Positions 2,708 through 19,046 of a stretch of 27,417 nucleotides of DNA are shown here, piece by piece; positions within the stretch are counted from its first letter, which is position 1; each line of letters begins with the position of its first letter. The DNA lies in the IMG/VR virus record IMGVR_UViG_3300030617_000044, positions 1-27,417 of that record. The stretch is one strand, 5' to 3'. This DNA is from a virus. The position numbers were made by a program, and so were the translations under genes. Below the pieces are notes generated by a model, which was not told where the DNA came from, did no database searches, and worked only from the letters and a program-made list of their open reading frames with translations.

Positions 2708-2944
2708 TTATTTATTCTTGGTTATCTTAAATTCGGTTTCTAACGTTGTTATGCGGGTATCAAGTAGGTTATATTTATCATCGCGCTTATCGAGCTTTTC
2801 GGCCATTTTTTCGATAATGGTAGTTAGGTTGGCAACCTTTTCGGCTAAAAAACCAACCTTTAAATAGTTAATGGCAAAGCCACTCCCGAAACTGATCAGG
2901 GCGACAAAATAAGGTAGTATTTCAGACAGTTTTGCCGCTTCCAT
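2708..2944 (-). CDS. Small membrane protein (N-terminal TM helix plus coiled coil), last gene of the lysis cassette; spanin- or holin-partner-like
   Basis: The ORF track gives 2708..2977. The ATG at 2944 gives MEAAKLSEILPYFVALISFGSGFAINYL (TM), followed by the heptad-rich LAEKVANLTTIIEKMAEKLDKRDDKYNLLDTRITTLETEF. Confidence 0.45.
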   Translation of the reverse strand: MEAAKLSEILPYFVALISFGSGFAINYLKVGFLAEKVANLTTIIEKMAEKLDKRDDKYNLLDTRITTLETEFKITKNK

Positions 2945-3212
2945 CGGTTGTATTTGTTGCAGGTGGCGTAATTGCATTAGGGTCTACTTTTGCCTGGGCG
3001 TGTATTATTCCCAGCCCTGATATGCCCAGGGCTACTTTTGCGGCTAACAGCAAATGTTCGCTTAAAACTACGCCGGTGCTGGCCTCTTTTAATATTACTG
3101 CTGATGCCGATAAGATGCAGGCCCACACATTGCGTACAAACTTGTAAATAGCCGGTGTCGGCGCGGTAAAGGTGTATAACAGCTTACCGAAAAATGCGAT
3201 TATTTTATCCAT
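2922..3212 (-). CDS. Holin-like small multi-TM protein
   Basis: 96 aa with 2-3 hydrophobic segments (VWACILSASAVIL; LLLAAKVALGISGLGII). It lies directly downstream of the GH25 lysin. Confidence 0.5.
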   Translation of the reverse strand: MDKIIAFFGKLLYTFTAPTPAIYKFVRNVWACILSASAVILKEASTGVVLSEHLLLAAKVALGISGLGIIHAQAKVDPNAITPPATNTTDGSGKTV

Positions 3213-3224
3213 GATTTTAATTGA

Positions 3225-3875
3225 TTAGGCGGTAATATTGGCTAAGGCGTTCAACTCTTCCTGCGTGCCCATCCACTGGTCTAAATCCATATTACCGCCT
3301 GTAGTTGCACCATTTAACTGACCATATTCGCTGTATTGCCAAATCTTATAAGCCCATCCCGGTATAAAAGGCGGCGGCGTTGGTTGGTATGAGGCTACCC
3401 AAAATATAGCATCGGGCCAGGTGTGGCAGATCACGTTTTTAATAAAATCATCATTTGAATAGATAATAATATCCTTACGGCCATAACGCGGATCGGCATA
3501 TAAAGCGGCTATGAAATTATTTACCCGTTGGATGCATAATGCCCGGTTATTGATTACGAATGTTTCTTCAGCGCTGCCGGAATCGGCTTCAAGGTCCAAC
3601 ATTAACGGTCCTGTGCTCCGCTCGGTATAACACACCCCTCTGCTTAAAACATTTTCAACTTGAAGTTCGCCATCGGCTTCCCAATCAAAAAAGTGATAAT
3701 CAATCACGATCACGGTAGGATATAGTCTTTTCAGCTCGTGATAAAATATTTGAAAATCCGGGTCCTGGAAGGAAGCGCCCTGCGTTCCTTTTATAGCAAC
3801 GATTGATATATCGGCGGGCAGGTTGTTAAGTACCTCAAGGCCGTTATTGTGTGAAAGATCGATTACTCTGATCAT
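3225..3875 (-). CDS. GH25-family muramidase (endolysin)
   Basis: VIDLSHNNG...VAIKGTQGASFQDPDF...IDYHFF matches the GH25 landmarks D-x-S-H, K-(A/G)-T-(E/Q)-G and YHF. It is adjacent to the holin-like genes. Confidence 0.7.
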   Translation of the reverse strand: MIRVIDLSHNNGLEVLNNLPADISIVAIKGTQGASFQDPDFQIFYHELKRLYPTVIVIDYHFFDWEADGELQVENVLSRGVCYTERSTGPLMLDLEADSGSAEETFVINNRALCIQRVNNFIAALYADPRYGRKDIIIYSNDDFIKNVICHTWPDAIFWVASYQPTPPPFIPGWAYKIWQYSEYGQLNGATTGGNMDLDQWMGTQEELNALANITA

Positions 3876-3910
3876 GGTATTATAAGGTTGAATTGATTTT
3901 ATGCTAAATA

Positions 3911-6064
3911 TTACCTGCTTAATGCACCTAAAAACGTTAAAACGTCGCTCGCGAATGATGCCTTTTGATCATCTGTAAAGCCAGCGCCAATACTTGCAAA
4001 ACCGCAACCATTTGGCGTAAACTGTACCGGCGTTCCGGTGCCATTAACCGCCCCTATATAAATACTTTTGGTAGGGGTGCCATTGGAAACATAATTTGCT
4101 GTTTGTTGCAAAGTGCCGTTTAAATCGAGCGTTTCAGTAGCCGCGTTATTTCTATTAATCAGCCATAAACCGGCAAAGCTATCGGTTATAGGAGCGTATA
4201 CTCCGCCCGTAGTTAAGCCACTGTTGGAGTTTACACTGGTATAATTTCGTGATCCATAGTTGAAAGTAAATTGGCTTATTTGATTATCAGCCGAATTATA
4301 GCCACCCATGAAAGAACTGTTATTCACCGCTGCGCTTAAAGAGTAATAACTCATATGTGCCGAATCTTGAGATATTAGGCCGTTTGTAGAAGGTATCAAG
4401 CCGGTATCGGCGTAAGAGCTCGTTCCATCAGGCAGATATCCGGTAGCGCCGAATACTTGCGAACCGCCATAAGAAAGCTGGTAGGTGGAAGGTGATATTA
4501 AGTTAAATGAACACTGGCTGGCCGCACCGCCCACAAATGGGTATATGGCTGCGCACAATGCCCAGGTGCCGTGCGCCTTTAATGCAATAACCAGGTTGGT
4601 TACAGCGGATTGCTGTGTCGGGTCTGTAATGCCGGCTGCCGTGAAAAATGCATTTGCATCCGCATCGCTTCCGCCGCCACCACCGCCGGTGTTTCCGCCC
4701 CTGCCAGTAGAAACTACGTCACCGGTCAATAACCAGGTGTTTATCGCTTGTTTGATTAATAACCCAATAGAATAAACCGCATTGGTGGAATATTTACCGC
4801 CTGCTGAATTAACAATTACACCCGTTGCCGAGGTAATATCTACCTGCCCGGCTCCCAATTGCAAAACCCTTATTTGCGATCCTGCCGCGAAAGGCACTTC
4901 GTTTTCCAAAGGCAACGTAAGCGCTACATTAGCCGCACTGTTAATGGATATAACCGAACCGCTGTCGGTCGGCTGCAAAGTATAGGCATCAGTTTGGGCA
5001 TTAAATGATAACTCCTTGCTTGAAAAGCCGATATTGTCCGCTTTAATGTTGCTTAAATATTGTGTCCGGGTAAAGATCGAATTATCATCCCCCACACCTG
5101 AAATAACCTTATTATACCGGATATAACCCTCTGTGCCTGATACCCGTTCGTCCAGGTCGAATTGAGTGGAATACCATAGGCCAGCACCAAGCCCATCGGG
5201 ATTGGTATCTTCTAATGCCAATTGGTTTATACTAAAAGGCATAACGCCCTTAACCACAATATTAAATGCCGTACGCGCCACGCAAGCCCTGTTTACCAGG
5301 GCAGGATGATAGGAGGTATTGAAGCTTAATCCCTCATAACACATATCAATCATAACATTGTCAATGTTCGCATGCTCATATAATTCCATGCCGGTGTATA
5401 CACCGATTATTAAAATTTTATCGGCATTTACGGAGACAAAATTATTAATGCCTGGGAACACTACTCCCCTGCATGTATTGGCTGGCATTACCGATAGGTT
5501 TTGGATAGACATCGTATCTATCCTTACATTCAATAAACTTAAATGCGCAAGGTTTAAGGCGTTAATAGCGGTAGCGGTAGGGGCAATATTGGTTGCGCCC
5601 GAAAGGCTATTTACGCGTATGGTGATATTTTCTACGTCTAAATGGCAATAACTAAAGTTACCCCACGGCCCGGTAGCAGAAAAGCTGCCGATTACGTTTC
5701 CCGCGCCAACTAACGTACTTTTTAGTATTACACCTGTGTTTGGGGGTGTTCCGCCGGTAAAGGGATCAGAATAATTATTCGGACCTGATTCACCCAATAA
5801 TTTTATTTTGTTATGCGCTACGCTGTTAACGTAGGCATGTAACGGAATGCTTAATTGACTGTTGGTCGTTCCATTCAGCGCGCCGCCTATAACATAAATG
5901 CCATTTGGAAGATAAACAACGCCGCCACCTGCCGCATCCGCGGCGTTAATGGCGTTTTGTATGGCAGTTGTATCATCGGTGGTGCCGTCTCCCAGCGCGC
6001 CGAAAGCTTTAACGTTATAAACGCGGCTGGTTTCTGATATTTTTGAGAATCTATCTATGAACAT
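3911..6064 (-). CDS. Spike/receptor-binding depolymerase: N-terminal pectate-lyase-3-like beta-helix, Gly-rich hinge, C-terminal lectin-like domain
   Basis: YNVKAFGALGDGTTDDTTAIQNAINAA..GGVVYLPNGIY is the signature N-terminus of the pectate-lyase superfamily and of tailspikes. The hinge is GGNTGGGGGGSDADANAFF. About 260 aa of beta-rich C-terminal domain follow. Confidence 0.7.
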   Translation of the reverse strand: MFIDRFSKISETSRVYNVKAFGALGDGTTDDTTAIQNAINAADAAGGGVVYLPNGIYVIGGALNGTTNSQLSIPLHAYVNSVAHNKIKLLGESGPNNYSDPFTGGTPPNTGVILKSTLVGAGNVIGSFSATGPWGNFSYCHLDVENITIRVNSLSGATNIAPTATAINALNLAHLSLLNVRIDTMSIQNLSVMPANTCRGVVFPGINNFVSVNADKILIIGVYTGMELYEHANIDNVMIDMCYEGLSFNTSYHPALVNRACVARTAFNIVVKGVMPFSINQLALEDTNPDGLGAGLWYSTQFDLDERVSGTEGYIRYNKVISGVGDDNSIFTRTQYLSNIKADNIGFSSKELSFNAQTDAYTLQPTDSGSVISINSAANVALTLPLENEVPFAAGSQIRVLQLGAGQVDITSATGVIVNSAGGKYSTNAVYSIGLLIKQAINTWLLTGDVVSTGRGGNTGGGGGGSDADANAFFTAAGITDPTQQSAVTNLVIALKAHGTWALCAAIYPFVGGAASQCSFNLISPSTYQLSYGGSQVFGATGYLPDGTSSYADTGLIPSTNGLISQDSAHMSYYSLSAAVNNSSFMGGYNSADNQISQFTFNYGSRNYTSVNSNSGLTTGGVYAPITDSFAGLWLINRNNAATETLDLNGTLQQTANYVSNGTPTKSIYIGAVNGTGTPVQFTPNGCGFASIGAGFTDDQKASFASDVLTFLGALSR

Positions 6065-6066
6065 AA

Positions 6067-7245
6067 TTAATCTCCTAAAATGATGGTTATTGGTGCCTGT
6101 ACGTTCGGGAATGAGAAATTGCCGTGGCTTTCGGTGAGGGTTTGGCTTACACCGTTACATATTACGGTTGCATGATCTGTTGTTGATACAACCGCGATGG
6201 CTACATTTCTGTATAGATAATCACCTATGGTTTCCTGAATTATTTGGCCATGTAAAATACCTGAGTAGTTATAATTTTCAGCGCCCTCTATGCTCACCGC
6301 GGTTATACTAGCTACCGACGCTTCATTCTCAATCGTTAGGTTATAGGTTGGTGCAGGTGGATTTACGGTACAAGTTGCCCCATTAGTGCCATCATTGGCA
6401 AATGCCTGGCCTGATGCCTCAAATGTGCCGTCAGCTGCCGCGGTTGAATCGGCATCCGCCTGGCTAATGGTAGAGGTATAAGTCTGTGAATAGTTGATGG
6501 CTGATCCAGTTGAGCCAGCGCCGCAATTGTTACGGGTAAAGCTTTCGGTACGGGTAGAGCTGTATACGGTAGCCACTACCGGTTGAAAGAAAGTGTCAAT
6601 ATAATATGGCGGGTTAGTTGCCCCGGTATCATCGGTATTGTTTGCAGGCAGGTTAAAGCCATCTTTTGAGGATAGGATCACATCGCCATCGGTATTAATA
6701 AGCAGGTATAATTCTATATTGGCTACTATTAAGTACTTTATAATATTTGCCGATGGCCTGTTGTTAACCGGCAAATTACCCAGTGTAATTGTTGTACCGG
6801 TAAAGCCGCTGGTTAACCCGAATTGTCCCTGTAAATAAGTGATCACCCGGTTAGGGAATGCGGAAAGGTCTGTTTTATATTGCAGTTCAAGCTGATCGAT
6901 CGTATCGCTTGACGGACTGTTTAAAGGTGTCCATACGCCAAAGTTTCCTGATAGTAAACTAATATCGGCACTATCGCCACCGGTGCCGGGAGCGCCACCG
7001 CCTTGCTGTTCATAAACCACCCAGGTAACCAGGTCGTTTTCCAGTTGGTAGGTAGTAGAATTGGCAATTACATAACAAGTCATCCCCGCCTCGCGCAAAT
7101 AAGTGCCTATGGCATTCATCGCCGCGATTGATGGCCTTGTATGCGCACCGCCCATAATTTCTTCCTGTAGCGCAACCGGGTATTGATCCAGGCTATCGTT
7201 TGGCCTGATGGCAGCGGCTATTAAGGTCCCTGTGTTCTTTCCCAT
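6067..7245 (-). CDS. Virion fibre/host-recognition protein with a DUF5977-like module
   Basis: FTRNNCGAGSTGSAINYSQTYTSTISQADADSTAAADGTFEASGQAFANDGTNGATC resembles the Cys-bounded DUF5977 repeat of Bacteroidota. It also carries a Gly-rich GGGAPGTGGDSAD hinge. Confidence 0.5.
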   Translation of the reverse strand: MGKNTGTLIAAAIRPNDSLDQYPVALQEEIMGGAHTRPSIAAMNAIGTYLREAGMTCYVIANSTTYQLENDLVTWVVYEQQGGGAPGTGGDSADISLLSGNFGVWTPLNSPSSDTIDQLELQYKTDLSAFPNRVITYLQGQFGLTSGFTGTTITLGNLPVNNRPSANIIKYLIVANIELYLLINTDGDVILSSKDGFNLPANNTDDTGATNPPYYIDTFFQPVVATVYSSTRTESFTRNNCGAGSTGSAINYSQTYTSTISQADADSTAAADGTFEASGQAFANDGTNGATCTVNPPAPTYNLTIENEASVASITAVSIEGAENYNYSGILHGQIIQETIGDYLYRNVAIAVVSTTDHATVICNGVSQTLTESHGNFSFPNVQAPITIILGD

Positions 7246-7246: not shown

Positions 7247-8026
7247 TTAGTTTACGATTATGCTGTCTAAAGGTGAATTGTATAAATAAATCGATACGTA
7301 CACATCCATAATGATGGTAGCGCCCTCGGCATTTACAAAGCTGCTGGTAGGCCTTACGTTGGTAAATGCTGTGTTAGCAAGGCCATTGATTACAAAGGAT
7401 GGTGTACCGTATGAGCTTGGTATCGCAAAAATTAAGTATTGCGCGCCGCCGCCAAAATCTGTTAAAGTAAGATCGCGGGTGGCTTGCAGGTTAGAGTTTG
7501 CCAGCGCCAGGATATCGCTATCCAGTATAGGGGCATCACTTAAGCCATCTTTGGCAATCGTACCCCAAAACATGCGCGGGAAATATTGCACGGTACAACT
7601 TGCCGAACTGCTTAAGGTGCCATCCGTTGCGGTCATGCTTTTGGTATAGCTATCATAAGGGTTGGCGAAATTTCCGGTCTGTGTGCCGCTCTGATCGCCA
7701 CCGGTAGGGGTAATGGCTGTGCCATCAACTGTAATGCCGGTAACGGTATTGGTTTTCCCGGTTACTTCCCAGGTTAAAGTATAGGCATCACTTTGGCCTA
7801 TCTCGCGGATAGGATCATCTACGCTAATAGCGCATTCGGGTGGTATGGGTGGATAAAACACTTGTTCTAAAAATGCTACTACGGTTGTTGTATTGGGATC
7901 AAAGCCTAGTATGCCGGGTGTGTTACGGGTAATATCGCGTTCACCATTAAAGGCATCGCTGCCACCGCCACCACCTGAACCGGTTGCCTGTTTACCTCCC
8001 CAAATTTTTTGTTTTTGAATATTCAT
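7247..8026 (-). CDS. Structural protein with an N-terminal Gly-rich hinge (GSGGGGGSDAFNG)
   Basis: 259-aa beta-rich ORF, tightly packed between fibre-like genes. Confidence 0.4.
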   Translation of the reverse strand: MNIQKQKIWGGKQATGSGGGGGSDAFNGERDITRNTPGILGFDPNTTTVVAFLEQVFYPPIPPECAISVDDPIREIGQSDAYTLTWEVTGKTNTVTGITVDGTAITPTGGDQSGTQTGNFANPYDSYTKSMTATDGTLSSSASCTVQYFPRMFWGTIAKDGLSDAPILDSDILALANSNLQATRDLTLTDFGGGAQYLIFAIPSSYGTPSFVINGLANTAFTNVRPTSSFVNAEGATIIMDVYVSIYLYNSPLDSIIVN

Positions 8027-8436
8027 TAGATGCCGCTAAAGAATTGTATTTGCACTACGTGTTGGTTACCATCTGTCGAGATCATCCTAAAATTATTCAG
8101 GTCATCTGCACATTGAATTTCATAGCTCTGTCCGTCATAGGTGGGTATGCCTGATATTGTGCTCGGCCATTGCCCATCCATCCAAAACCTGATTAATACC
8201 TGACCGTCGGGGATGCTGCTATTAGCTGCCTCCACGGTAACGATAGCCGAGTTTGAACCGGCGGGCCATAAACCAAGCAGCGAACACACTTTTGTCGGAT
8301 CGATCTGAGCCGAAGCGTGACCTACAGCGCGCTTGCGTGCGTTTGCTATAAAAGCGGTAGGGCCTGCCGCGGGTGTTGTCGGCGCGGTTGGATATTCGGG
8401 GCCGGGGACGGCTACTGGTAGGGTGGTGAATGACAT
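8026..8436 (-). CDS. Small beta-rich structural protein (vertex/penton candidate)
   Basis: 136 aa with a Pro/Ala-rich N-terminus followed by beta-rich sequence. Its stop overlaps the next start (TAATG). Confidence 0.3.
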   Translation of the reverse strand: MSFTTLPVAVPGPEYPTAPTTPAAGPTAFIANARKRAVGHASAQIDPTKVCSLLGLWPAGSNSAIVTVEAANSSIPDGQVLIRFWMDGQWPSTISGIPTYDGQSYEIQCADDLNNFRMISTDGNQHVVQIQFFSGI

Positions 8437-8437: not shown

Positions 8438-8968
8438 TTAACTCAATAAATTGTGTAATACTTTTGATATGGCTGGCTGCTGATAATAGGCCAGGTGATT
8501 TTTATTGATGCTGCGTTCCTGCGCGAACATTTGATTGTCGTATTGTTGCAGGTTATTCTCTTTAATGATCCGCGATAACTTATCGGCATACTGTGCCCTA
8601 TCTCCACCACGGTTAAAGCCGGCCGCTTGTATGGCTTTAGCCTGCGCAAACGGGTTTTTAGCGGTTACCACCCCGGCTGCCAGGTAGATCGGTTTTTTAA
8701 GGATCACTATTTCTGCCGATATCGCATCGCTTATGCTATTATACCAGCGCCAAACGTTTCCATGCGGCGTTGTTTGCCCTTTTTTACCTGTCCAGTTGGC
8801 GTTAGCCATGTGTCCGAAAATGTTATTATACATCTGCGCGATCTTGGAAGTGCCCGAGCCGCTTTCCTGTATGGCCTGAGCAATTACTACCGATGGGAAA
8901 ACACCGGTGTTAATGCAGTTGGCAATAACATCCGGTGCGATCCGCTGGGCAAAGCTTGATGATGGCAT
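8438..8968 (-). CDS. Glucosaminidase-domain (FlgJ/GH73-like) peptidoglycan hydrolase, virion module
   Basis: FPSVVIAQAIQESGSGTSKIAQMYNNIFGH matches the mannosyl-glycoprotein endo-beta-N-acetylglucosaminidase signature. Confidence 0.7.
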   Translation of the reverse strand: MPSSSFAQRIAPDVIANCINTGVFPSVVIAQAIQESGSGTSKIAQMYNNIFGHMANANWTGKKGQTTPHGNVWRWYNSISDAISAEIVILKKPIYLAAGVVTAKNPFAQAKAIQAAGFNRGGDRAQYADKLSRIIKENNLQQYDNQMFAQERSINKNHLAYYQQPAISKVLHNLLS

Positions 8969-8974: not shown

Positions 8975-9106
8975 CTATACTCTTTTAGCGGCTTCCTTAA
9001 CGCAGGTTGTCCACTTCTTTTTATTGGTTGATTTGTTGTAAACCTTTTTTGCCGCTGTGATGATCTTTTTCAGTTTAGCGGTGCCTTTGTTGTGTTTTTT
9101 TGCCAT
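8975..9106 (-). CDS. 43-aa highly basic protein (MAKKHNKGTAKLKKIITAAKKVYNKSTNKKKWTTCVKEAAKRV)
   Basis: Hand-translated ORF below the 60-aa track cutoff. It fills the gap between the two hydrolase genes on the operon strand. Confidence 0.4.
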   Translation of the reverse strand: MAKKHNKGTAKLKKIITAAKKVYNKSTNKKKWTTCVKEAAKRV

Positions 9107-9676: not shown

Positions 9677-9778
9677 CTATTTATCCTTTATGATGCCTTT
9701 TTTGTACAGATAGAAAGTGCCTAACAGTATCACGATGATACCGGCCCATAAGAATTTGTTTTGCTGTGCTGCGCTCAT
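9677..9778 (-). CDS. 33-aa single-pass membrane protein (MSAAQQNKFLWAGIIVILLGTFYLYKKGIIKDK)
   Basis: Hand-translated. ATG at 9778, TAG at 9677-9679. It fills an intergenic gap and its TM anchor is paralogous to 10476..10574. Confidence 0.45.
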   Translation of the reverse strand: MSAAQQNKFLWAGIIVILLGTFYLYKKGIIKDK

Positions 9779-9782
9779 GTTG

Positions 9783-9911: not shown

Positions 9912-9913
9912 GG

Positions 9914-10471: not shown

Positions 10472-10475
10472 CGGG

Positions 10476-10574: not shown

Positions 10575-10587
10575 GATTGTGTTTGTT

Positions 10588-12186: not shown

Positions 12187-12188
12187 AC

Positions 12189-12879: not shown

Positions 12880-12915
12880 AAAAAAGCCTGCCTGGTTATT
12901 GGCAGGCTTTTTTTA
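12880..12915. terminator. Strong bidirectional-looking rho-independent terminator
   Basis: AGCCTGCC (12885-12892) pairs with GGCAGGCT (12901-12908). It is flanked by an A-run and a T-run. Confidence 0.8.
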
Positions 12916-12939: not shown

Positions 12940-13680
12940 TTAGCGGCCTAAACCCCTGAAGCTTGCGGTTGGCAATGCGCCCGCTACTGCGGCTACTTTG
13001 TTGTTTTGGATAACTGAATCCTTAGTGCGTAATGCCGTAGCGATATTTAATGATGCACCGAATGCCATCACCAACGATACAGTGGTTGAAGCTAAAATTG
13101 GGTACTGTATTTGTGTCTGACCATCCATGTAGAATTTCTCAGGGATGTTTAACAAGGTCGTATTCGGGTTGATCGGGTCGGCATAGATACCAATTTGAAT
13201 CAAGCGGCTACTATAGTTTTTGAAAGGTGATTGCCTTTGGATAGTGATGATCTGATCCAGCTGAACCGGATTGTTTGTAGATACCTTAAAGCCTAAAATA
13301 GTAGTCGGGAATTTGTCAATAAACGCGTTGAAGTATGCAATTGGCTGCGGGCCACCTGCACCAACTAAACCCGTACTACCACCACCCGAAACCACATCAT
13401 CATAATCGGTAAATCCACCATCTGCCATCAAGCCTACCGCATTGCGGATTAACCCTGGGCACAATAAAGCGATTAAGGTTGCTGATGTGCTATTGTTTTT
13501 TAGGGTAATGGTATAAATCTTTCCTGAGTTTACGGCATCGCCGAATGTGCCTGCGTTACCGCCGAAGTCTAGGAAATCATCATTTGAGCCATCGTAAAAA
13601 CCGCCGTCATAGCTAGAGTAATTTACGGTGCGGGCTTCTAAATCTTGTGGGTTGTATAACCCGTTATTTTTTGGTTTCAT
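12940..13680 (-). CDS. Candidate major capsid protein
   Basis: 246-aa beta-rich protein with no TM. Together with the small gene 13730..13888 it forms a unit bracketed by two strong terminators (14017-14042 and 12885-12908), consistent with very high expression. No family motif was recognised. Confidence 0.4.
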   Translation of the reverse strand: MKPKNNGLYNPQDLEARTVNYSSYDGGFYDGSNDDFLDFGGNAGTFGDAVNSGKIYTITLKNNSTSATLIALLCPGLIRNAVGLMADGGFTDYDDVVSGGGSTGLVGAGGPQPIAYFNAFIDKFPTTILGFKVSTNNPVQLDQIITIQRQSPFKNYSSRLIQIGIYADPINPNTTLLNIPEKFYMDGQTQIQYPILASTTVSLVMAFGASLNIATALRTKDSVIQNNKVAAVAGALPTASFRGLGR

Positions 13681-13729: not shown

Positions 13730-13888
13730 TTAGCTTACTTTGAGGTAGCCGGTTGATGGGGTGCCGACGTGCACGCTTAATGCACCATCTTTAATGAATT
13801 CTTTAGTAAGTAGGCCTTTAAGAAAGAACCATATAACGAGCGCTAGTAGAACCGTTACTAATACTTTTTCATCAATGTATTTTTTCAT
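13730..13888 (-). CDS. 52-aa single-pass membrane protein (MKKYIDEKVLVTVLLALVIWFFLKGLL…)
   Basis: Hand-translated. ATG at 13888, TAA at 13730-13732. It lies directly upstream of the capsid candidate. Confidence 0.45.
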   Translation of the reverse strand: MKKYIDEKVLVTVLLALVIWFFLKGLLTKEFIKDGALSVHVGTPSTGYLKVS

Positions 13889-14016: not shown

Positions 14017-14042
14017 AGCCCGGCACTTTCGGGTGCCGGGCT
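14017..14042 (-). terminator. Strong rho-independent terminator
   Basis: AGCCCGGCAC (14017-14026) pairs with GTGCCGGGCT (14033-14042). On the minus strand it is followed by TTTTTTG. Confidence 0.85.
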
Positions 14043-14115: not shown

Positions 14116-14769
14116 TTATACAGCCGGATTATTGGTGTTATCAACCACAGGCCCGCTGTTTTCAGAGCTTTCAGCACCGGCAGCGGGTCCGGCGTTAACT
14201 TGTGTGTTAGGGTCGGTGTTTTTATCAGTGCTGGGTTCATCTTGAATGACATTGCCACCGATGGGTATGATGTTATTAATGGATTGATCGCCTGAAGTGT
14301 TATTTTCAGCATCAATGGATTGATTGATATCTGATGTAACAGAGCCGCCCTGAACCTGTGTGTTACCTTGTTCCTCGCTTTCTGTATCAAGCGGCGCAGT
14401 TAACGCCTGGCCGAATATCTGAAGCGTTGCAACCCCGTTTTCAATTACTACGCTCAACTGATCATTAAAGGTGAATGATTGTGATTGAGCCGGTACCGTA
14501 CCGGTAATTTGTGCGATAGTAGATCCGACTAAAGTATCGCTGTTTTCACCGGCGGTATCAGTTGGCTCAACATATTTATCTAATGTTAACAAATACGTTA
14601 CACCTATTTCCGGTTCAAAATCAGTCGCAAACACATCTAATAGGGTGACGCCATTCTGAGAACCTGAGCGGAAATCATTTAATCCCTCGCCACTGTCTAC
14701 ATTGCGTAGGTTTAATTTGGGCATACCGGCCGATATGGGGGCCGCTACTAATAAAAATGTACTTTTCAT
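14116..14769 (-). CDS. Structural protein with a hydrophobic N-terminus and a long polar/acidic disordered C-terminus
   Basis: 217-aa ORF with N-terminus MKSTFLLVAAPISAG. The C-terminal third is rich in N/Q/S/D/T. Confidence 0.45.
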   Translation of the reverse strand: MKSTFLLVAAPISAGMPKLNLRNVDSGEGLNDFRSGSQNGVTLLDVFATDFEPEIGVTYLLTLDKYVEPTDTAGENSDTLVGSTIAQITGTVPAQSQSFTFNDQLSVVIENGVATLQIFGQALTAPLDTESEEQGNTQVQGGSVTSDINQSIDAENNTSGDQSINNIIPIGGNVIQDEPSTDKNTDPNTQVNAGPAAGAESSENSGPVVDNTNNPAV

Positions 14770-14793
14770 TGTTTTATGGTTTTTTAATTTTAA

Positions 14794-15066
14794 TTATTCT
14801 TTTACTGGTTCGTATGTTATTTCGAAAACATCAATCGGACAGGCATATATCTCACCTTTTACGCCTATAATCAGTACATCATTTGGGGTAAAAAGGAAAT
14901 TCGTTCCCTGGTTAGGTATGATATAACAAGCATCATTTTCATGAGTAACAGGATAGCCTTTAAAATCAAAACTCCAATGTGGATGTGGTGAGTTTTCTTT
15001 GGCATATTGGACAAACTCGGCAAAAGTTATTACCTCAATAGCTATTGGTTTTTTTCTGTATAGCAT
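14794..15066 (-). CDS. Hypothetical protein (90 aa)
   Basis: ORF on the operon strand, tightly packed. No motif was recognised. Confidence 0.4.
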   Translation of the reverse strand: MLYRKKPIAIEVITFAEFVQYAKENSPHPHWSFDFKGYPVTHENDACYIIPNQGTNFLFTPNDVLIIGVKGEIYACPIDVFEITYEPVKE

Positions 15067-15071
15067 GATAT

Positions 15072-15851
15072 TTATGGGTTAATTTTTACAAGATCATAAG
15101 CCGCGCCTACCGACTGTTTAAGGTTGTTTTCATAATACCAGGTATCGGTTACATGCCAGCGGCCCAGGCGTAGGTTAGCTTCCAGCGCCGGGGTTATGGT
15201 TTTGGTATCTAAAAAATAATTAGCCTTTGCATAGGCCGAAAAACCAATAAAAGCAGGCTGGGCGATCACGCTGTTTTGGTCGATTTCGTCAATGGTAGCG
15301 CGGGGATCATCGGTACTGAAATCCAGTACTGCCGGTTTGGTGCTGAAAGGCAGTAAACTAGCCGGTGTAAACTTTACCGCCGTAACCCGCACCTGGTAAC
15401 TCACCTGTGCCGTATTGGTGACCGTGTAATAAGTGAGCTGCAAATGAGCATCGGTATAACTATAAACATTATTACCGGCCGGGGTGAGCTGTATACTGGC
15501 AGCTAGCTTCAGGTTTACGCGGGTAAGCTCGGCTATTTGCTCATCCTTAATTTTTAGTTTAATGGCGTTGCTATCCAGTAGGGTATGGTTGGTTACGCTG
15601 GTATCTTTCAGGCTCTTTTGGCTTACCTGGTTAGCGTTAGCCTGTGTTTGTACGTGGGTATCGCCGGCAGTATCCTTAAATGTTTTGATTTGAGTGGCCT
15701 GCGGATGCTGTAAGGCTGTTTTCGCTACGGTTACAGCCTTTTTATTAGCTGATTGATTGGATTGATGCCAATAACTGAATATAGCAAAGGCAAGAACTAA
15801 TATCGAAGCGATATCAATTATTCTTAAAGTCCATTTTCTAAAGTTTTCCAT
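15072..15851 (-). CDS. N-terminally membrane-anchored beta-rich structural protein
   Basis: 259 aa, with TM segment WTLRIIDIASILVLAFAIFSYW. Confidence 0.45.
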   Translation of the reverse strand: MENFRKWTLRIIDIASILVLAFAIFSYWHQSNQSANKKAVTVAKTALQHPQATQIKTFKDTAGDTHVQTQANANQVSQKSLKDTSVTNHTLLDSNAIKLKIKDEQIAELTRVNLKLAASIQLTPAGNNVYSYTDAHLQLTYYTVTNTAQVSYQVRVTAVKFTPASLLPFSTKPAVLDFSTDDPRATIDEIDQNSVIAQPAFIGFSAYAKANYFLDTKTITPALEANLRLGRWHVTDTWYYENNLKQSVGAAYDLVKINP

Positions 15852-15852
15852 C

Positions 15853-16236
15853 TTAAATAAGTTTTGACATTTGAACAGAGAGCATGTATAGCAGGTATTT
15901 AACCAGTTTGTCTTTTGAAATTAATTCAGCCTCGTAATCAGTTGAAAACTGGAAACTGCAACGGCGCAAATACATATCGTTTTTTACATATTCAATCCAA
16001 TACATCGCCTGCCCAGCTTCCGGCTTAATTGTCCACTGAAGTTCCTTCACCTCCTCGGCTTCATCTTCAAAAAATTCGGGGGATTCAATTCGCTTTGCAA
16101 CTATTAGCTTTTCTTCAACCTTCTCAAACGTGATCTCACCCGCTTTAAAATCTTCTACAAGGGCAGCGTAATACTGATCCTGTGTAAACTCCACCTTTTC
16201 GGTGCTTATGTCCTTGTTTTCTTTTACTATTTCCAT
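15853..16236 (-). CDS. Acidic hypothetical protein (127 aa)
   Basis: ORF on the operon strand, overlapping its upstream neighbour by 10 nt. Confidence 0.4.
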   Translation of the reverse strand: MEIVKENKDISTEKVEFTQDQYYAALVEDFKAGEITFEKVEEKLIVAKRIESPEFFEDEAEEVKELQWTIKPEAGQAMYWIEYVKNDMYLRRCSFQFSTDYEAELISKDKLVKYLLYMLSVQMSKLI

Positions 16237-16424
16237 GGTTCACCTAAATGATTAACTATTTTTTCTACCTGGGCGGGTGTGAATGCTTTGCCATGACACT
16301 TACCTAGATCGGGAACGCCCCCTAGCCAAATTCTAAATGTTTTATAGGTTACATCATAAAAGGTGATTAACTCTTTAAGTCTGTAAGCCTTTATAGTGAA
16401 TTTTGCTTCCTGCTCTGCACTCAT
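16227..16424 (-). CDS. DUF4248-like small HTH protein
   Basis: YRLKELITFYDVTYKTFRIWL...FTPAQVEKIVNHLGEP resembles the Bacteroidota DUF4248 pattern, which ends ...FTP.QV..IV..LGEP. Confidence 0.45.
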   Translation of the reverse strand: MSAEQEAKFTIKAYRLKELITFYDVTYKTFRIWLGGVPDLGKCHGKAFTPAQVEKIVNHLGEPWK

Positions 16425-16984
16425 ATCAGGGTTTCAATATCTTCGAAGTAATAAGGGTCTTTGCTGGCGTTAACACGTTTAAAAGCGGCCGATACCTTTT
16501 CGAAATTTGGGATGCGGCCGCGGTATTTATTTTCTAGCACATCCTGTGTTTTAAGCAGGCGTAAATAGCTTGCCATCTGCCAAAAAAACGGCGGTACCAT
16601 TACTAGGCTGTGAAAGGTGAATATCAGATCGCAATTGTACATGCGGTGATCCACCAAAAACGTTTTTATCTCCGGGCGCACATTGCCACTGATATACTTG
16701 GTACAATCCTCGAAAACAAGTAACCCACCCCTAAAATATTTAGCGATAGTTTTTAACGCTTCCTCATCAGGCGTGCCTAATAGTTTCACCTTGCCGCTTT
16801 TTAACGCTTTAACCTGGTCAAGCTCAATCGCCGGGTATTTATTATATGCCGGTGAGTTGTTTACATCTAAAATCAGCACTTTATCGCCTGCGTAAGCATC
16901 TACCGTGCCGGCAGTTTTAGTGCTTTTGCCTGTTCTTTTTCGGCCTACGGTGAGTATGGTATATTGTTCATCGCGTGTGCTCAT
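16421..16984 (-). CDS. Small P-loop NTPase; candidate genome-packaging/assembly ATPase (Zot/pI-like motif arrangement)
   Basis: Walker A is GRKRTGKST and Walker B is LLVFEDC, followed by HRMYNCDLIFTFHS (compare HRH.G.D of Zot-type ATPases). It is the only NTPase in the late region. Confidence 0.55.
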   Translation of the reverse strand: MSTRDEQYTILTVGRKRTGKSTKTAGTVDAYAGDKVLILDVNNSPAYNKYPAIELDQVKALKSGKVKLLGTPDEEALKTIAKYFRGGLLVFEDCTKYISGNVRPEIKTFLVDHRMYNCDLIFTFHSLVMVPPFFWQMASYLRLLKTQDVLENKYRGRIPNFEKVSAAFKRVNASKDPYYFEDIETLI

Positions 16985-17196
16985 TCTTTCAGGTCCCGGC
17001 TTTTTTGGAATACGATAAGAAAACCATTTAATTTATCTTTGAGGGATCGCTCCATATCATCTATCTTGTTTTCGATTAACGATTCAAGTTTATCGGTCTT
17101 TTTTTCGGCAACTACCCCTGTTAACAGCACACTCCATATAATAAATACATTTAAGGCGACTAGCACGCCTAATAAGATCACTATCGCTATTCCCAT
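16981..17196 (-). CDS. Single-pass membrane protein with a coiled-coil tail
   Basis: MGIAIVILLGVLVALNVFIIWSVLLTGVV… The track start at 17205 is TTG; the ATG is at 17196. Confidence 0.45.
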   Translation of the reverse strand: MGIAIVILLGVLVALNVFIIWSVLLTGVVAEKKTDKLESLIENKIDDMERSLKDKLNGFLIVFQKSRDLKE

Positions 17197-17197
17197 A

Positions 17198-17332
17198 TCA
17201 ATCAATTATTACAGTAGGTTTGGTTTCGGGTGCTAAATCTTCATATACCGGTTTTTTATGGCTGAAAATAACCATTGCTGCCACACTTGCAGCCAGTATA
17301 AACACGCTTATGTACAGGTACCGGTTACGCAT
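17198..17332 (-). CDS. 44-aa single-pass membrane protein (MRNRYLYISVFILAASVAAMVIFSHKK…)
   Basis: Hand-translated. ATG at 17332 lies 2 nt after the upstream stop, and TGA is at 17198-17200. Confidence 0.45.
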   Translation of the reverse strand: MRNRYLYISVFILAASVAAMVIFSHKKPVYEDLAPETKPTVIID

Positions 17333-17334
17333 GG

Positions 17335-17919
17335 TTAATCAGTTAGTATTAATTTGCCACGATTAAAGATCACTTCGCTGTATGCGGCTAGCAGACCCTG
17401 CATTGGTGTCATTTGTAAATCAACTGTTTTCGCATAACGCTCGGTAGCATTTATCAGGCGCTTGGTTTCACCGGTATTAAATGGCACCTTTTTAATTTTC
17501 TTTTCGTAATACAGCCACTTTTTGTAAAGCATAGCTTTGGTATCGGTGCCCGGATATTCGGTTGCGCCGCTTAAATCCATTGTTTGCAGGGTTTCACGCT
17601 CCTTTTCGGTAAAGGTTCGTTTCTCAATGAGCAGGGGTAAGAATGAGCTTTGCATGCCATCCAGTAAATTAACAATGGTTTCGGCCATATCCCGGTGAGG
17701 CATAAAACCCTCATCAATTACTTGTTCGGCGGTTTCAACTACGGGTTGTTGCTGCTGGCGGGTTTCTTCCTGTATGATTTCATCAAACAGTACATCGTTT
17801 ACATCGGTAATTTGCTCTTCCTCATTTAGTATAAAGCTCGGCCGCTCTGCTTGGTTAACCACCGGGCGGGACAGCATATCATCCAGGTTAAAAACCTGTG
17901 TTTTATTGCCCTTATCCAT
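17335..17919 (-). CDS. Hypothetical late protein (194 aa)
   Basis: The track gives 17335..17952 with a TTG start. The ATG at 17919 overlaps the upstream stop (ATGGATAA). Confidence 0.45.
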   Translation of the reverse strand: MDKGNKTQVFNLDDMLSRPVVNQAERPSFILNEEEQITDVNDVLFDEIIQEETRQQQQPVVETAEQVIDEGFMPHRDMAETIVNLLDGMQSSFLPLLIEKRTFTEKERETLQTMDLSGATEYPGTDTKAMLYKKWLYYEKKIKKVPFNTGETKRLINATERYAKTVDLQMTPMQGLLAAYSEVIFNRGKLILTD

Positions 17920-18505
17920 TGATTTCAGGATTTTTAGTGGTGTATTTATCAATTACGCGCACAATGCCCGATAGCTCGGCCATCTTGGTTTTATCTTTCA
18001 TCATTTTGGTGATGACCGGTATAACCGACATTACGCCTTTACCCTCAAATAAGCCCGCAAACACCTGGAAAACATTAACCATTTCGATGATATCAGCTTT
18101 GTACTCGGTATTTTGCGCTAAGAACTCGGCAAATTGATCCCGGTTAACTAGAACGTTTTTTTCGAGGTCTAACTCCAATAATTTAATAGTGTTTTGTACT
18201 AATTTATCGAACTCTTCCTTTCCTACTAATTGATTGTTTTCAAGGTCTAATTCTTCGTAAGCAGTTGCCTTCTCACGTAGTTCTTTTAAGATCGAATTAT
18301 CTATCGGGGTATTGTTATCAAATTCGATAAGCAACATCTTTTGATACCAGTTATTATTTACCGGTACATGGTTATCATCCTGCCAGGCCTCAGCCATTTG
18401 CTCATATTGTTTGTACTTTTCGAGGTCTGATTTTTTTATAACTACCTCGTCAACATCGACATAAACATCACCGCCGTTTAGTTCGCCTGCTTTTTTAGTT
18501 CCCAT
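17912..18505 (-). CDS. Acidic coiled-coil protein (scaffold-like)
   Basis: 197 aa, rich in E/K/L/N with heptad-like stretches. Confidence 0.4.
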   Translation of the reverse strand: MGTKKAGELNGGDVYVDVDEVVIKKSDLEKYKQYEQMAEAWQDDNHVPVNNNWYQKMLLIEFDNNTPIDNSILKELREKATAYEELDLENNQLVGKEEFDKLVQNTIKLLELDLEKNVLVNRDQFAEFLAQNTEYKADIIEMVNVFQVFAGLFEGKGVMSVIPVITKMMKDKTKMAELSGIVRVIDKYTTKNPEING

Positions 18506-18810
18506 TAGCGTTTTTTTTTTGTTTTAAAAGGTGAAAGGAAATCCCCGTTTGCGTGGTCGAGCATCTTGATAACAAGGCGCACAATGTCAAATTTTGATTC
18601 AGGTGTAGGTTTATATCTGTCGATCACTTCCTGAATGCGCTCGGCTTCGCTTACCGTTGATCTGCCGCCCCACTGTATGGATTTAGGATCAGGCGACTTT
18701 AAATGCTGATTACGGGGTTTAGAGGCAGGCACGGCGGGAAATACCGCCGTTTCCTGTGCCTGGGTTGCCTCGGTATCCGGGATGGATGGGTTTTGTTGTT
18801 CTGTACTCAT
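18505..18810 (-). CDS. Hypothetical late protein (101 aa)
   Basis: ORF on the operon strand with a 1-nt start/stop overlap at each end. Confidence 0.4.
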   Translation of the reverse strand: MSTEQQNPSIPDTEATQAQETAVFPAVPASKPRNQHLKSPDPKSIQWGGRSTVSEAERIQEVIDRYKPTPESKFDIVRLVIKMLDHANGDFLSPFKTKKKR

Positions 18811-19046
18811 TACCTGCCTTTGCGTTTAGCCCTTAGTTTAGCCTGTTTTCGGGATTTAAGGCGGTTTGTATGGCGCTTTTTAATCTGGATGTTAAGCGCA
18901 TGGCCTTGCACCCTTTCGGTATTAGGCGTACGTGCCCACTTTTGTACCGTGGATTTGGTTCTAGCATAGTTTTCAGCGGTTTTTTGCTGACTACGTTGCG
19001 GTGCAGGCCTGTGAATTGCCGGTGGCGGCGGGGGAGTAGAGAGCAT
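18810..19046 (-). CDS. Very basic small protein with an HTH-like segment (…NYARTKSTVQKWAR…KKRHTNRLKSRKQAKLRAKRKGR); DNA-binding
   Basis: 78 aa. It is the first gene of the late operon. Confidence 0.4.
   Translation of the reverse strand: MLSTPPPPPAIHRPAPQRSQQKTAENYARTKSTVQKWARTPNTERVQGHALNIQIKKRHTNRLKSRKQAKLRAKRKGR

Follow-up and report, generated by a model that had tools for sequence, protein, structure and literature searches.

A 27-kb circular genome most likely belonging to a temperate bacterial virus without a tail

The stretch of DNA analysed here in full (the window; 27,417 nucleotides, virus record IMGVR_UViG_3300030617_000044) is most likely the complete circular genome of a temperate bacterial virus that lacks a tail. 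The explanation that we consider probable, if well short of certain, is that of a tailless temperate virus of a new lineage, self-sufficient, icosahedral and probably with a membrane, with Bacteroidota of the Sphingobacteriaceae type as its host group. A sequence-only reading had proposed a tail-less, membrane-containing temperate virus, and this proposal is supported by the jelly-roll model of one late protein, the profile match of a small ATPase, related prophage loci, and the lack of any terminase, portal or HK97 match in the profile searches. The element most likely belongs to a large virus family, built on a new capsid-type protein and a small motor for DNA packaging, that none of the reference databases checked annotates, and our literature search found no paper describing this family.

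Genome organisation, gene content and relatives

The termini of the contig overlap exactly over 127 nt (1..127 identical to 27291-27417), which implies a circular assembly with 27,290 bp of unique sequence and confirms that the genome is closed at 27.3 kb, as had been claimed. The same virus is present in 81 collection blocks of a metagenome index, 66 of which hold contigs of 20-50 kb, with lengths of 27,417 and 27,218 bp among them. The features of the window are as follows (- and + denote strand).

338..712, +, 124-aa protein, possible repressor; homologues in two related prophages, at the corresponding end
1280..2530, +, tyrosine integrase (PF00589, PF13102; phrog_1, E 1.7e-32)
2708..3212, -, two small hydrophobic proteins of 89 and 96 aa
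3225..3875, -, GH25 muramidase (PF01183, E 1.6e-17)
3911..6064, -, 717-aa spike with pectate-lyase-like beta-helix (PF12708, E 9e-13; tail-spike PHROGs)
6067..7245, -, fibre of 392 aa with a DUF5977 domain, kept in 8 related loci
7247..8026, -, acidic protein of 259 aa (cluster c24), flanked by the fibre and the 136-aa protein
8026..8436, -, conserved protein of 136 aa (cluster c8), always just upstream of the spike genes
8438..8968, -, glucosaminidase-family peptidoglycan hydrolase (PF01832, E 1e-20)
8975..9106, -, 43-aa very basic protein, pI 10.6
9159..9674, -, phage-lysozyme-family hydrolase (PF00959, E 8e-16)
9677..10863, -, block of small membrane proteins (33, 42, 185, 32 and 80-91 aa), the 185-aa one being conserved cluster c10
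10832..11803, -, 323-aa protein of c19, a conserved cluster of large membrane proteins, with two hydrophobic helices (hhalign 95.7% to c19)
11809..12207, -, protein with HExxH (zinc-metallopeptidase) motif (cluster c2), a core member of the family that the remotest relatives have as well
12189..12863, -, low-complexity protein of 224 aa with C-terminal membrane anchor, in the slot held by c7 in relatives
12890..12907, no strand, bidirectional terminator-like hairpin just past the capsid-candidate gene
12940..13680, -, 246-aa major capsid protein candidate (AlphaFold2 model, Foldseek, family conservation)
13730..13888, -, 52-aa single-pass membrane protein (cluster c16), preceding the capsid-candidate gene in 8 loci
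14017..14042, -, strong terminator hairpin (10-bp stem with 8 G-C pairs) closing the accessory insert
14116..16236, -, accessory (moron-like) insert absent from all related loci: 127, 259 (with membrane helix), 90 and 217 aa
16227..16424, -, 65-aa protein (cluster c5) with weak DUF4248 match, directly 3' of the ATPase gene in the majority of related loci
16421..16984, -, 187-aa P-loop ATPase, candidate genome-packaging ATPase (hhalign, weak Pfam matches)
16981..17332, -, two single-pass membrane proteins, both small (71-74 and 44 aa), encoded directly 5' of the ATPase gene
17335..17952, -, acidic protein of ~200 aa (cluster c1), second only to the ATPase in breadth of core-gene conservation
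17912..18810, -, 197-aa acidic protein (c6) and 101-aa protein (c12), conserved at the start of the late operon
18810..19046, -, extremely basic protein of 78 aa (pI 12.0), whose gene opens the late operon
19301..19508, no strand, array of ten TGTAACA/TGTTACA heptamers in the 0.8-kb early-late intergenic region
20310..21038, -, D12-class N6-adenine DNA methyltransferase
21258..23612, -, 784-aa DUF5906 (D5/P4-like) primase-helicase (PF19263; DNA primase PHROGs)

Some 50 proteins (30 late and 20 early or lysogeny proteins) were compared with Pfam, PHROGs and NCBIfam, and none matched a large terminase subunit, a portal, an HK97-fold major capsid protein, a head protease, a tape measure, a tail tube, a sheath or a baseplate; the only 'tail' matches in PHROGs were to the spike and depolymerase domains of 3911-6064. 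Sizes agree with these negative searches. Large terminase, portal and tape-measure proteins typically have roughly 400 aa or more, and the late ORFs, largest first, encode 717 (3911-6064), 392 (6067-7245), 323, 259, 259, 246, 224 and 217 aa, so that only the pectate-lyase spike exceeds 400 aa and no long ORF could be a tape measure. The earlier statements that no ORF has the size or motifs of a tailed-phage hallmark, and that the spike and the fibre are the largest late ORFs, are thus in accord with the data. The majority of the late proteins matched nothing in the databases.

On the lysogeny side, an integrase, a repressor module and a P4/D5-type primase-helicase had been named; Pfam and PHROGs sustain the integrase and the primase-helicase, and the 124-aa protein (338-712) has neither a Pfam match nor other database support as a repressor. 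The heptamer array may be an operator or a replication origin.

The late operon spans ~16 kb, and its order is conserved in at least 17 genomes of several families: the search for related prophages in Bacteroidota that had been called for revealed at least 17 syntenic loci, in Pedobacter, Mucilaginibacter, Hymenobacter and Chitinophagaceae, which share the ATPase, the 65-aa protein, the capsid candidate, the HExxH protein, membrane proteins, lysins and spike genes in the same order. The conserved order begins with the acidic c12/c6/c1 group, small membrane proteins, the 187-aa ATPase, the 65-aa protein, the 52-aa membrane protein and the 246-aa protein, and continues through the HExxH protein, membrane proteins, peptidoglycan hydrolases, the 136-aa protein, and the fibre and spike to the lysis cassette. 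Integrase-bounded prophage copies lie in four genome loci, one of them beside tRNA-Met. In most related loci, the gene directly 3' of the capsid candidate encodes a membrane-anchored protein of ~130-185 aa; the 224-aa protein of the window shows weak homology to c7 (hhalign 25%).

Around 11-13 late proteins carry a hydrophobic helix (44, 71, 259, 52, 224, 323, 80, 185, 42, 96 and 89 aa, plus two ORFs of 32-33 aa), and these suggest a membrane in the virion. As only some seven or eight of them are tiny, the earlier count of at least 12 tiny single-pass membrane proteins was slightly generous. Two peptidoglycan hydrolases, the lysozyme (9159-9674) and the glucosaminidase (8438-8968), do lie amid the membrane genes as had been noted, with a third, the GH25 muramidase, elsewhere; the very basic 43-aa and 78-aa proteins and the pectate-lyase-type spike were likewise recovered. 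The spike is probably a depolymerase, and the muramidase, which adjoins holin-like genes, is likely the endolysin, with the 89- and 96-aa hydrophobic proteins as its putative holin-like partners. By size and position, the 136-aa protein (c8) is a candidate vertex (penton) protein, with no similarity to PRD1 P31 or the other proteins compared; the 259-aa c24 protein is probably part of a vertex or spike complex, and the c1 protein may be an assembly or scaffold factor.

The capsid candidate and the packaging ATPase

By its model, the structural protein with the strongest conservation adopts a jelly roll and not an HK97 fold. The AlphaFold2 model of the 246-aa protein (pLDDT 89.8, pTM 0.81; 150-sequence alignment) contains one eight-stranded jelly-roll-like beta-sandwich of ~160 residues, with helices interspersed, further helices at the N terminus and a long helix at the C terminus, in line with the earlier description of a beta-rich protein and answering the proposed check of 12940..13680 for such folds with a single sandwich. 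Its best Foldseek neighbours are capsid proteins of picornaviruses (VP2/VP3), nodaviruses, circoviruses and STMV, together with other jelly rolls, all of them weak matches (best E 4e-4, TM 0.2-0.45); the capsid label thus draws on fold class, gene position and conservation, not on homology. The same lists also hold C1q/TNF-like and carbohydrate-binding jelly rolls, which makes a spike or receptor-binding role possible. The 50 best matches do not include the capsid proteins of P23-77.

In metagenomes, the 246-aa family comprises 562 clusters at 50% identity, with no match in Pfam, PHROGs, NCBIfam, PDB or GenBank phages. It is conserved in all complete related loci, distant ones included, and always together with the ATPase; the proximity of the two genes is as in PRD1, PM2, P23-77 and SH1. 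On these grounds, we infer that the 246-aa protein, with its modelled fold, would serve as major capsid protein in an icosahedral shell. A single jelly-roll gene was detected, and neither a second capsid protein nor a penton protein was identified; c8, c24 and c1 may include a second jelly-roll protein. The region 14116-14769, proposed earlier as a further jelly-roll candidate, belongs to the insert missing from relatives, whose 90-aa protein matches phrog_419. Hairpins upstream (14042-14017) and downstream (12890-12907) corroborate the two strong terminators said to insulate the 246-aa gene, the upstream one preceding the 52-aa and 246-aa genes together.

The 187-aa protein (16421-16984), whose gene is overlapped in the window by that of the 65-aa protein, is an ASCE P-loop protein with the motifs GRKRTGKST, LLVFED and DHRMYNCD, as first read from the letters. 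Comparison with FtsK/HerA, Zot and PRD1-P9 profiles had been suggested; among the reference virus ATPases tested with hhalign, the packaging ATPases of IN93 (95.9%) and P23-77 (94%) matched best, in alignments of 147-166 residues that span Walker A, Walker B and downstream motifs, against 40% for PM2, 24% for SH1, 11% for PRD1 and 2.7% for M13 gI. Similarity to PRD1 P9 and PM2 P9 lies mainly in the P-loop region. HMMER gave weak reciprocal best hits with IN93/P23-77 (E ~1e-3 in a tiny database, 21% identity), and a PDB search returned nothing beyond the P-loop. Family members match Zot, FtsK, HerA, TraG and TrwB weakly in Pfam, and a few are named 'Zot' in UniProt; the Zot match of the ATPase itself (E 0.005) scores 16.8 bits, below the curated cut-off of 20.3. 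Altogether, this protein is a candidate packaging motor of the FtsK/HerA type and a remote homologue of the Matshushitaviridae enzymes, and the weak Pfam matches suggest that it may share the ASCE, FtsK/HerA-like superfamily with A32/P9-type enzymes.

A proposed virion and its alternatives

Gene content points to an icosahedral virion with an internal membrane. In such a virion, the 246-aa protein would form the shell, assembling around a host-membrane vesicle loaded with the 11-13 viral membrane proteins, and the FtsK/HerA-type ATPase would pump dsDNA through one vertex into the preformed particle. For adsorption, the vertices would bear the DUF5977 fibre and the depolymerase spike of pectate-lyase-like type, along with the 136-aa and 259-aa proteins; the lysozyme and the glucosaminidase, carried in the virion, would open the cell wall at entry, and the GH25 muramidase with the two holin-like proteins would release progeny.

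A pleomorphic membrane-vesicle virion of the pleolipovirus or Plasmaviridae kind, with no icosahedral capsid, would account for the many membrane proteins and the one small NTPase, which would then have a role other than procapsid packaging; the 246-aa protein would be a spike, matrix or receptor-binding protein, as its likeness to C1q/TNF-type and carbohydrate-binding modules and the missing penton and second capsid proteins would allow. We nonetheless regard this as unlikely, given that the ATPase aligns over the whole ASCE core with packaging enzymes of icosahedral Thermus phages, that its gene lies near the jelly-roll gene as in icosahedral membrane-containing viruses, that dedicated spike and fibre genes stand elsewhere in the operon, and that the capsid candidate has a conserved N-terminal extension (modelled as helices) and a C-terminal helix, both frequent in shell proteins. 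Still less probable is a satellite or phage-inducible island that depends on a helper phage and travels in the virion of that phage. The integrase, the DUF5906/D5-type primase-helicase and the small regulators do resemble those of P4-like satellites, and sequence searches gave no recognised capsid gene; at 27 kb, however, the element exceeds the typical satellite size, and it differs from P4-like satellites in its own conserved ~16 kb module for morphogenesis, adsorption and lysis, kept in order across the related genomes. The gene content is not that of the satellite or fragment that would have undone the earlier reading: the element encodes its own ATPase, capsid candidate, spike, fibre, three lysins and holin-like proteins, with Pfam matches for the receptor-binding and lysis genes. 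To our knowledge, an own ATPase, spike, fibre, lysins and holins are not typical of known P4-like or PICI satellites.

Two further accounts dispense with a tailless virion. A non-viral integrative element, such as one encoding a secretion or surface apparatus, with the ATPase and membrane proteins as parts of transport machinery, could draw on the weak TraG, TrwB, FtsK and Zot matches and the many membrane proteins, yet the lysis cassette, the virion-type depolymerase spike, the fibre and three muralytic enzymes are typical of a virus, early and late operons are separated by terminators in a virus-like manner, and no relaxase or type IV secretion component was found in the element, so that we consider it very improbable. 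Least credible of all is a conventional tailed phage in which divergence has made the terminase, portal, HK97 capsid and tail genes unrecognisable: the scarcity of database matches among late proteins would fit, whereas the ORF sizes (none but the spike reaching ~400 aa), the jelly-roll model and the recurrence of the same pattern in all related loci speak against it.

Comparison with known virus groups

The icosahedral membrane-containing reading invites comparison with PRD1 and PM2 (Tectiviridae and Corticoviridae; Bamfordvirae), in which a small ATPase gene likewise adjoins the capsid gene, tiny membrane proteins are many and muralytic enzymes lie in the structural module; in PRD1, furthermore, a cluster of small vertex-protein and spike genes stands, as here, beside a muramidase gene (P15-P2-P31-P5), and a lysozyme, transglycosylase or muramidase is annotated within the structural module, as in P23-77. 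Their capsid proteins, however, are double jelly rolls of 269-395 aa, in contrast to the one sandwich modelled here, a point on which the element departs from the prokaryotic Bamfordvirae (Tectiviridae, Corticoviridae, Autolykiviridae and Finnlakeviridae), and the PRD1 genome is linear and protein-primed. Profile comparison of the 246-aa family with PRD1 P3, PM2 P2 and the FLiP capsid protein gave hhalign probabilities below 1%, with no sequence match in PDB, and no sequence similarity to PRD1 P3, P2, P31 or P1 was found.

An inovirus ATPase of the Zot/pI type was rejected in view of the sub-threshold Zot score, the 2.7% for M13 gI, and the lack of a hydrophobic helix and of the C-terminal membrane domain of that type. 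The element also differs from inoviruses in having lysins and spikes, both absent from them, and neither a rolling-circle Rep nor a filament coat gene was recognised in it.

The tailless haloarchaeal Sphaerolipoviridae and Simuloviridae have genomes of comparable size (16-31 kb), capsid proteins of the single jelly-roll type, an ATPase of FtsK/HerA type and an internal membrane, the last of which is suggested here by the genes; simuloviruses are temperate (PMC12642351). They differ in infecting archaea and in using two capsid proteins, and no similarity to SH1 VP4 or VP7 was detected.

Closest by ATPase are the Matshushitaviridae, that is, the Thermus phages P23-77 and IN93 (Helvetiavirae, of late placed in the realm Singelaviria), which share circular dsDNA, the absence of tail genes, an ATPase gene followed closely by the capsid gene or genes and then by many small membrane and structural proteins, lysozyme and transglycosylase genes among the structural genes (P23-77), and a temperate habit with an integrase (IN93). 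Differences are nonetheless substantial: their genomes measure 17-20 kb against 27 kb here, their capsid genes, two neighbours of the single jelly-roll type (VP16 and VP17), contrast with the one detected, the hosts here are mesophilic Bacteroidota, and the large spike and fibre genes and the D5-type primase-helicase set the element apart. The 246-aa protein has no sequence or Foldseek similarity to VP16/VP17, and a comparison of P23-77 proteins of at least 80 aa with four conserved clusters detected no other shared gene. The earlier view that the element corresponds to no recognisable family holds for the capsid-candidate family, which matches none of the databases searched, and needs amending for the ATPase: through its remote link to the Matshushitaviridae, the group is not wholly without relatives.

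Gene content of the closed genome

The genome is closed, as had been claimed from the sequence alone, with its terminal 127 nt repeating the initial 127 nt exactly and a unique length of 27,290 bp. The window corresponds to record ena:ERZ19991658:scaffold_463_c1, and assemblies from many further samples contain this virus too, its capsid-candidate and ATPase proteins being identical there (81 collection blocks in the index, 66 of them with 20-50 kb contigs, for example of 27,218 and 33,228 bp). Except for three genes at one end, the minus strand encodes essentially everything:

338-2530 (+): the three exceptional genes, including the integrase at 1280-2530
19046 down to 2708 (-): late operon
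3225-3875: GH25, a third peptidoglycan hydrolase, adjoining two holin-like genes
8438-8968: glucosaminidase
9159-9674: lysozyme
12940-13680 (-): 246-aa capsid candidate
16421-16984 (-): 187-aa P-loop ATPase
between 19862 and 19046: early-late intergenic region, 0.8 kb
27413 down to 19862 (-): early and replication genes
20310-21038: D12 methyltransferase, confirmed
21258-23612: DUF5906 primase-helicase

The integrase and primase-helicase named in the sequence-only reading were recovered, whereas its repressor (338-712) found no database support. Rfam and tRNA scans of the whole window gave no match, nor did megablast of 25 kb against phages.

Equally in line with that reading, which had described tailed-phage hallmarks as missing, comparison of the approximately 50 proteins with Pfam, PHROGs and NCBIfam (core proteins only for NCBIfam) returned no match to a terminase, portal, HK97 capsid, prohead protease, tape-measure, tube or sheath protein, and the spike is the sole late ORF of terminase or portal length, as in all related loci. 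The largest late ORFs indeed encode 717 and 392 aa, the former being the proposed pectate-lyase-type spike, with a pectate-lyase-like domain and matches to tail-spike PHROGs. The suggestion of at least 12 tiny membrane proteins holds in part: approximately 11-13 late proteins carry a hydrophobic helix, as called by a simple hydropathy window, but just 7-8 of them fall below 100 aa. The lysozyme and glucosaminidase do lie amid the membrane genes, the two proteins described as very basic have pI values of 10.6 (43 aa) and 12.0 (78 aa), and the terminators described around the 246-aa gene are present as hairpins at 14042-14017 and 12890-12907, which enclose the 52-aa gene as well.

The capsid candidate and the ATPase

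The central element of the late module is the 246-aa protein, which had been called beta-rich and which AlphaFold2 models as a single jelly-roll-like sandwich. A word-indexed search of 5.8 billion proteins returned 14 relatives, all from Mucilaginibacter or Pedobacter, yet a HMMER profile run against 1.84 billion cluster representatives recovered 562 clusters at E <= 1e-3 (359 at E <= 1e-10), indicating a large but unannotated family of at least 562 clusters defined at 50% identity, mainly in Bacteroidota, with further members in a contig binned to Oscillospiraceae. The protein had no match in Pfam, PHROGs or NCBIfam, by tblastn against 50,697 GenBank phage records, or at sequence level in the PDB, whether queried as a single sequence via Foldseek or as a 150-sequence profile.

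With 14 sequences the AlphaFold2 model was mediocre (pLDDT 63.7), and with 150 sequences it reached pLDDT 89.8 and pTM 0.81. The main elements of the better model, which also has short extra strands, are:

Eight main strands: 55-62, 69-75, 103-110, 126-135, 144-150, 155-162, 189-195, 200-211
Helices: two N-terminal, 114-123, 138-142, and a long C-terminal one at 213-235

These strands form one beta-sandwich of approximately 160 residues, which rules out a double jelly roll for this protein. Neither model had a significant Foldseek match in PDB or BFVD, the best E values being 5e-3 (PDB, high-confidence model) and 4e-4 (BFVD, first model); capsid proteins of the single jelly-roll type (enterovirus VP2/VP3, nodavirus, circovirus, STMV, TYMV, cucumovirus) dominated the lists, which also held other jelly rolls (C1q/TNF, nucleoplasmin, CBM16, cupin). 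By hhalign, the capsid-candidate profile scored a probability of at most 1% against each of the capsid proteins VP16/VP17 of the Thermus phage P23-77 and their homologues in IN93, and likewise against SH1 VP4/VP7, PRD1 P3/P31, PM2 P2/P1 and the FLiP capsid protein. Judged from the predicted model, the protein belongs to a jelly-roll-like fold class and has no detectable specific relative. A second jelly roll was sought by profile-profile comparison of the ORF clusters c1, c2, c6, c7, c8, c12 and c24 with the capsid-candidate profile, with no match.

The late operon contains a single 187-aa P-loop protein bearing the motifs previously attributed to it, whose family comprises at least 116 clusters. 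Its Pfam matches are sub-threshold and mixed among P-loop families, including Zot, FtsK, HerA/DUF87, TraG and TrwB. The genomes of P23-77, IN93, SH1, PRD1, PM2, FLiP and M13 served as references for hhalign comparison.

hhalign probabilities for the ATPase profile, and for controls between reference proteins
ATPase profile and IN93 ATPase: 95.9% (166 columns)
ATPase profile and P23-77 ATPase: 94.0% (147 columns)
ATPase profile and PM2 P9: 40%
ATPase profile and SH1 ORF17: 24%
ATPase profile and PRD1 P9: 11%
ATPase profile and M13 gI: 2.7%
Control, IN93 ATPase and SH1 ORF17: 85%
Control, SH1 ORF17 and PRD1 P9: 93%

The IN93 alignment spans Walker A, Walker B (LLVFED against LLLLDE), DHRMY against GGREF, and FTFHS against FVTQ. 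In a HMMER search of all ORFs of the seven reference genomes, the two top hits of the profile, both weak, were the ATPases of IN93 (E 1e-3) and P23-77 (E 6e-3); in reverse, a Helvetiavirae ATPase profile ranked the window-family ATPases first among 728 proteins, a weak reciprocal best match. Of the reference virus ATPases compared, hhalign and reciprocal HMMER both place the packaging enzymes of the Thermus phages, which contain a membrane, closest to this putative motor; the relationship is remote. PDB searches with the single sequence and the profile gave matches at P-loop level only, a profile search of a large protein collection brought just closer family members among the matches listed, and clusters c5 and c16 matched none of the small proteins flanking the P23-77, IN93 and SH1 ATPases.

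Related loci, affinities and rival readings

A check of Bacteroidota genomes for related prophages, suggested by the sequence-only reading, found loci with the same gene order. An ATPase-pattern scan of 185,579 species genomes yielded 17 loci, hosted by Pedobacter (several species), Mucilaginibacter, Pseudopedobacter, Nubsella, Hymenobacter, Hymenobacteraceae, Chitinophaga, Chitinophagaceae and Cyclobacteriaceae, with a few on contigs binned to non-Bacteroidota MAGs. Loci L007, L012 and L016 lie on contigs binned to Rhizobium, Janthinobacterium and Pyrinomonadaceae MAGs; because their sequences are close to Bacteroidota loci, these assignments more probably reflect mis-binning of a mobile element than the true hosts.

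Clustering of all ORFs gave a shared order: c12, c6, c1, small membrane proteins, the ATPase, c5 (approximately 60 aa), c16 (approximately 50 aa, membrane) and the capsid candidate, continuing with c7 (membrane-anchored), c2 (HExxH), c19 (approximately 450 aa, membrane), c9, c10 and c13 (membrane), and ending with one or two peptidoglycan hydrolases, c8 (approximately 138 aa), c24, a DUF5977 fibre and further spike genes. Four loci have the module bounded by an integrase gene, which in Hymenobacter saemangeumensis adjoins tRNA-Met. The window matches this order, its 323-aa protein belonging to c19 (hhalign 95.7%). Three remote capsid-candidate relatives (L032, L033 and L034) lie in elements sharing c1, the ATPase, c5, the capsid candidate, c2, c9/c10/c13 and muralytic enzymes, with an integrase in two of the three (L032 and L034), so that the lineage core comprises c1, the ATPase, c5, the jelly-roll protein, the HExxH protein and membrane proteins. 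The L032 contig (GCA_029004655.1, JAQVYP010000028.1), 15 kb long and assigned by binning to an Oscillospiraceae (Firmicutes) MAG, also encodes an M23 peptidase, Amidase_3 and an integrase; given this contig, whose MAG binning is uncertain, the lineage may reach beyond Bacteroidota.

The HExxH protein of this conserved core (11809-12207, minus strand, motif MLHEMAHVV) measures 125-132 aa in the window, as against 250-280 aa in the distant relatives (L032 9202-10017; L033 10557-11303; L034 11587-12432), one of which shows a faint Peptidase_M48 match; it may be a maturation protease or a wall peptidase.

PRD1, PM2, P23-77/IN93 and SH1 parallel the window in several respects: all have a small ATPase gene beside the capsid gene, then many genes for small membrane proteins, with muralytic enzymes encoded inside the structural module and a small vertex-protein gene adjoining the spike genes. 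The element probably works like these tailless, membrane-containing viruses. However, Helvetiavirae have two capsid proteins, whereas one jelly-roll gene was detected here; the 246-aa protein resembles neither VP16/VP17 nor VP4/VP7; and clusters c1, c2, c7 and c8 scored nothing above 20% against the 26 P23-77 proteins of at least 80 aa. Since the ATPase alone is detectably shared with P23-77 among the genes tested, the window is not in Helvetiavirae as currently defined. Membership of Bamfordvirae was rejected as the predicted model has no double jelly roll, and an inovirus reading was rejected by the M13 gI hhalign score and by gene content.

The parallels in gene content and order, the jelly-roll model and the ATPase link are, in combination, best explained by a self-sufficient, tailless, probably membrane-containing icosahedral temperate virus, a reading that we consider likely, though well short of certain. 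Under it, the jelly-roll-like protein would be the major capsid protein and the membrane proteins would belong to an internal membrane. Ranked below it are a pleomorphic vesicle-type virion and a highly diverged tailed phage. A helper-dependent satellite and a non-viral element are likewise ranked lower, and the element is most probably no satellite. Beyond the icosahedral temperate virus itself, we hold only tentatively that it represents a large unrecognised lineage of temperate, tailless, membrane-containing dsDNA viruses, whose shell would consist of one jelly-roll capsid protein, not related by sequence to any known one and paired with an FtsK/HerA-type ATPase nearest that of Helvetiavirae; that such a capsid defines a distinct high-rank lineage is possible to a similar degree.

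Tailless membrane-containing phages are badly under-sampled, and how the jelly-roll virus realms evolved at the deepest level is debated mainly on the evidence of their capsid proteins and ATPases. If the proposal is true, the group would either be related to the two-capsid-protein helvetiaviruses while using one capsid protein, a state that to our knowledge has been hypothesised but never observed, or have acquired a jelly-roll capsid independently; in both cases at least a new family or order would be warranted, and a shell of one jelly-roll protein with a helvetiavirus-like ATPase would bear on the origin of two-protein and double-jelly-roll capsids. No description of the family was found in the full-text literature searched, beyond whose coverage papers could hold one, and the surveys PMC5894146 and PMC8812541 do not mention it. 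The capsid-candidate family amounts to hundreds of clusters missed by all the annotation resources and phage records searched, and two pattern scans of 2.9 million IMG/VR contigs found one ATPase relative and no capsid-candidate relative. Given this yield beside the 562 capsid-candidate clusters of metagenome protein collections, current virus-detection pipelines may miss the lineage; capsid-candidate and ATPase profiles would let them recover the group. The prophages in cultured Pedobacter, Mucilaginibacter, Nubsella, Pseudopedobacter and Hymenobacter strains make the proposal directly testable; candidate lysogens among them are Pedobacter jeongneungensis H1ai (AYMG01000008.1, approximately 157-181 kb), P. 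cryophilus AR-3-17, P. vanadiisoli KCTC 42866, Mucilaginibacter pankratovii ZT4R22, Nubsella zeaxanthinifaciens TDMA-5 and Hymenobacter saemangeumensis JCM 17923.

Accessory genes and intergenic repeats

Directly downstream of the ATPase gene in most relatives lies a gene for a 65-aa protein (16227-16424, minus strand), which in the window overlaps the ATPase stop codon. It resembles DUF4248, a Bacteroidota domain of unknown function, weakly and below cut-off (E 1e-4), and could be a DNA-binding partner of the putative packaging ATPase. Between it and the 52-aa gene, an insert at 14116-16236 (minus strand) carries four genes, encoding 127 aa, 259 aa (with an N-terminal membrane helix), 90 aa (matching phrog_419, E 6e-12, unknown function) and an acidic 217 aa. 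The insert gave no defence-system match, and a PADLOC scan of the accessory genes returned the methyltransferase only. Because none of the 17 related genome loci has it and it stops at the 14042-14017 terminator, the strongest hairpin of the late region, it looks like a moron-like accessory block.

Among the early genes, 24363-25307 (minus strand) encodes a 314-aa protein whose C-terminal half is of extreme Ala/Asp/Tyr/Arg low complexity (AAYAAYDAYAAYDADAAY ... ARAADARAADARAAD ...), with no match in Pfam, PHROGs or PADLOC and no homologue among the related loci. A 136-aa predicted lipoprotein (731-1141, plus strand; signal peptide end ...LSSNAC), with no database match, sits between the putative repressor and the integrase, a position typical for a lysogenic-conversion or superinfection-exclusion gene.

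Within the early-late intergenic region, two minus-strand ORFs at 19056-19253 and 19480-19647 (65 and 55 aa) have TTG starts and odd composition, overlap a repeat-rich, AT-rich stretch and are probably no real genes. Of the 12 heptamers TGTAACA/TGTTACA in the window, where approximately 2 per strand are expected, 10 crowd into approximately 210 bp at 19301-19508, an array that could be an operator or replication origin. L002, L009, L001/L005 and L006, which likewise all encode the DUF5906 primase-helicase, have such arrays of 4-11 copies approximately 2.5 kb upstream of their ATPase genes.
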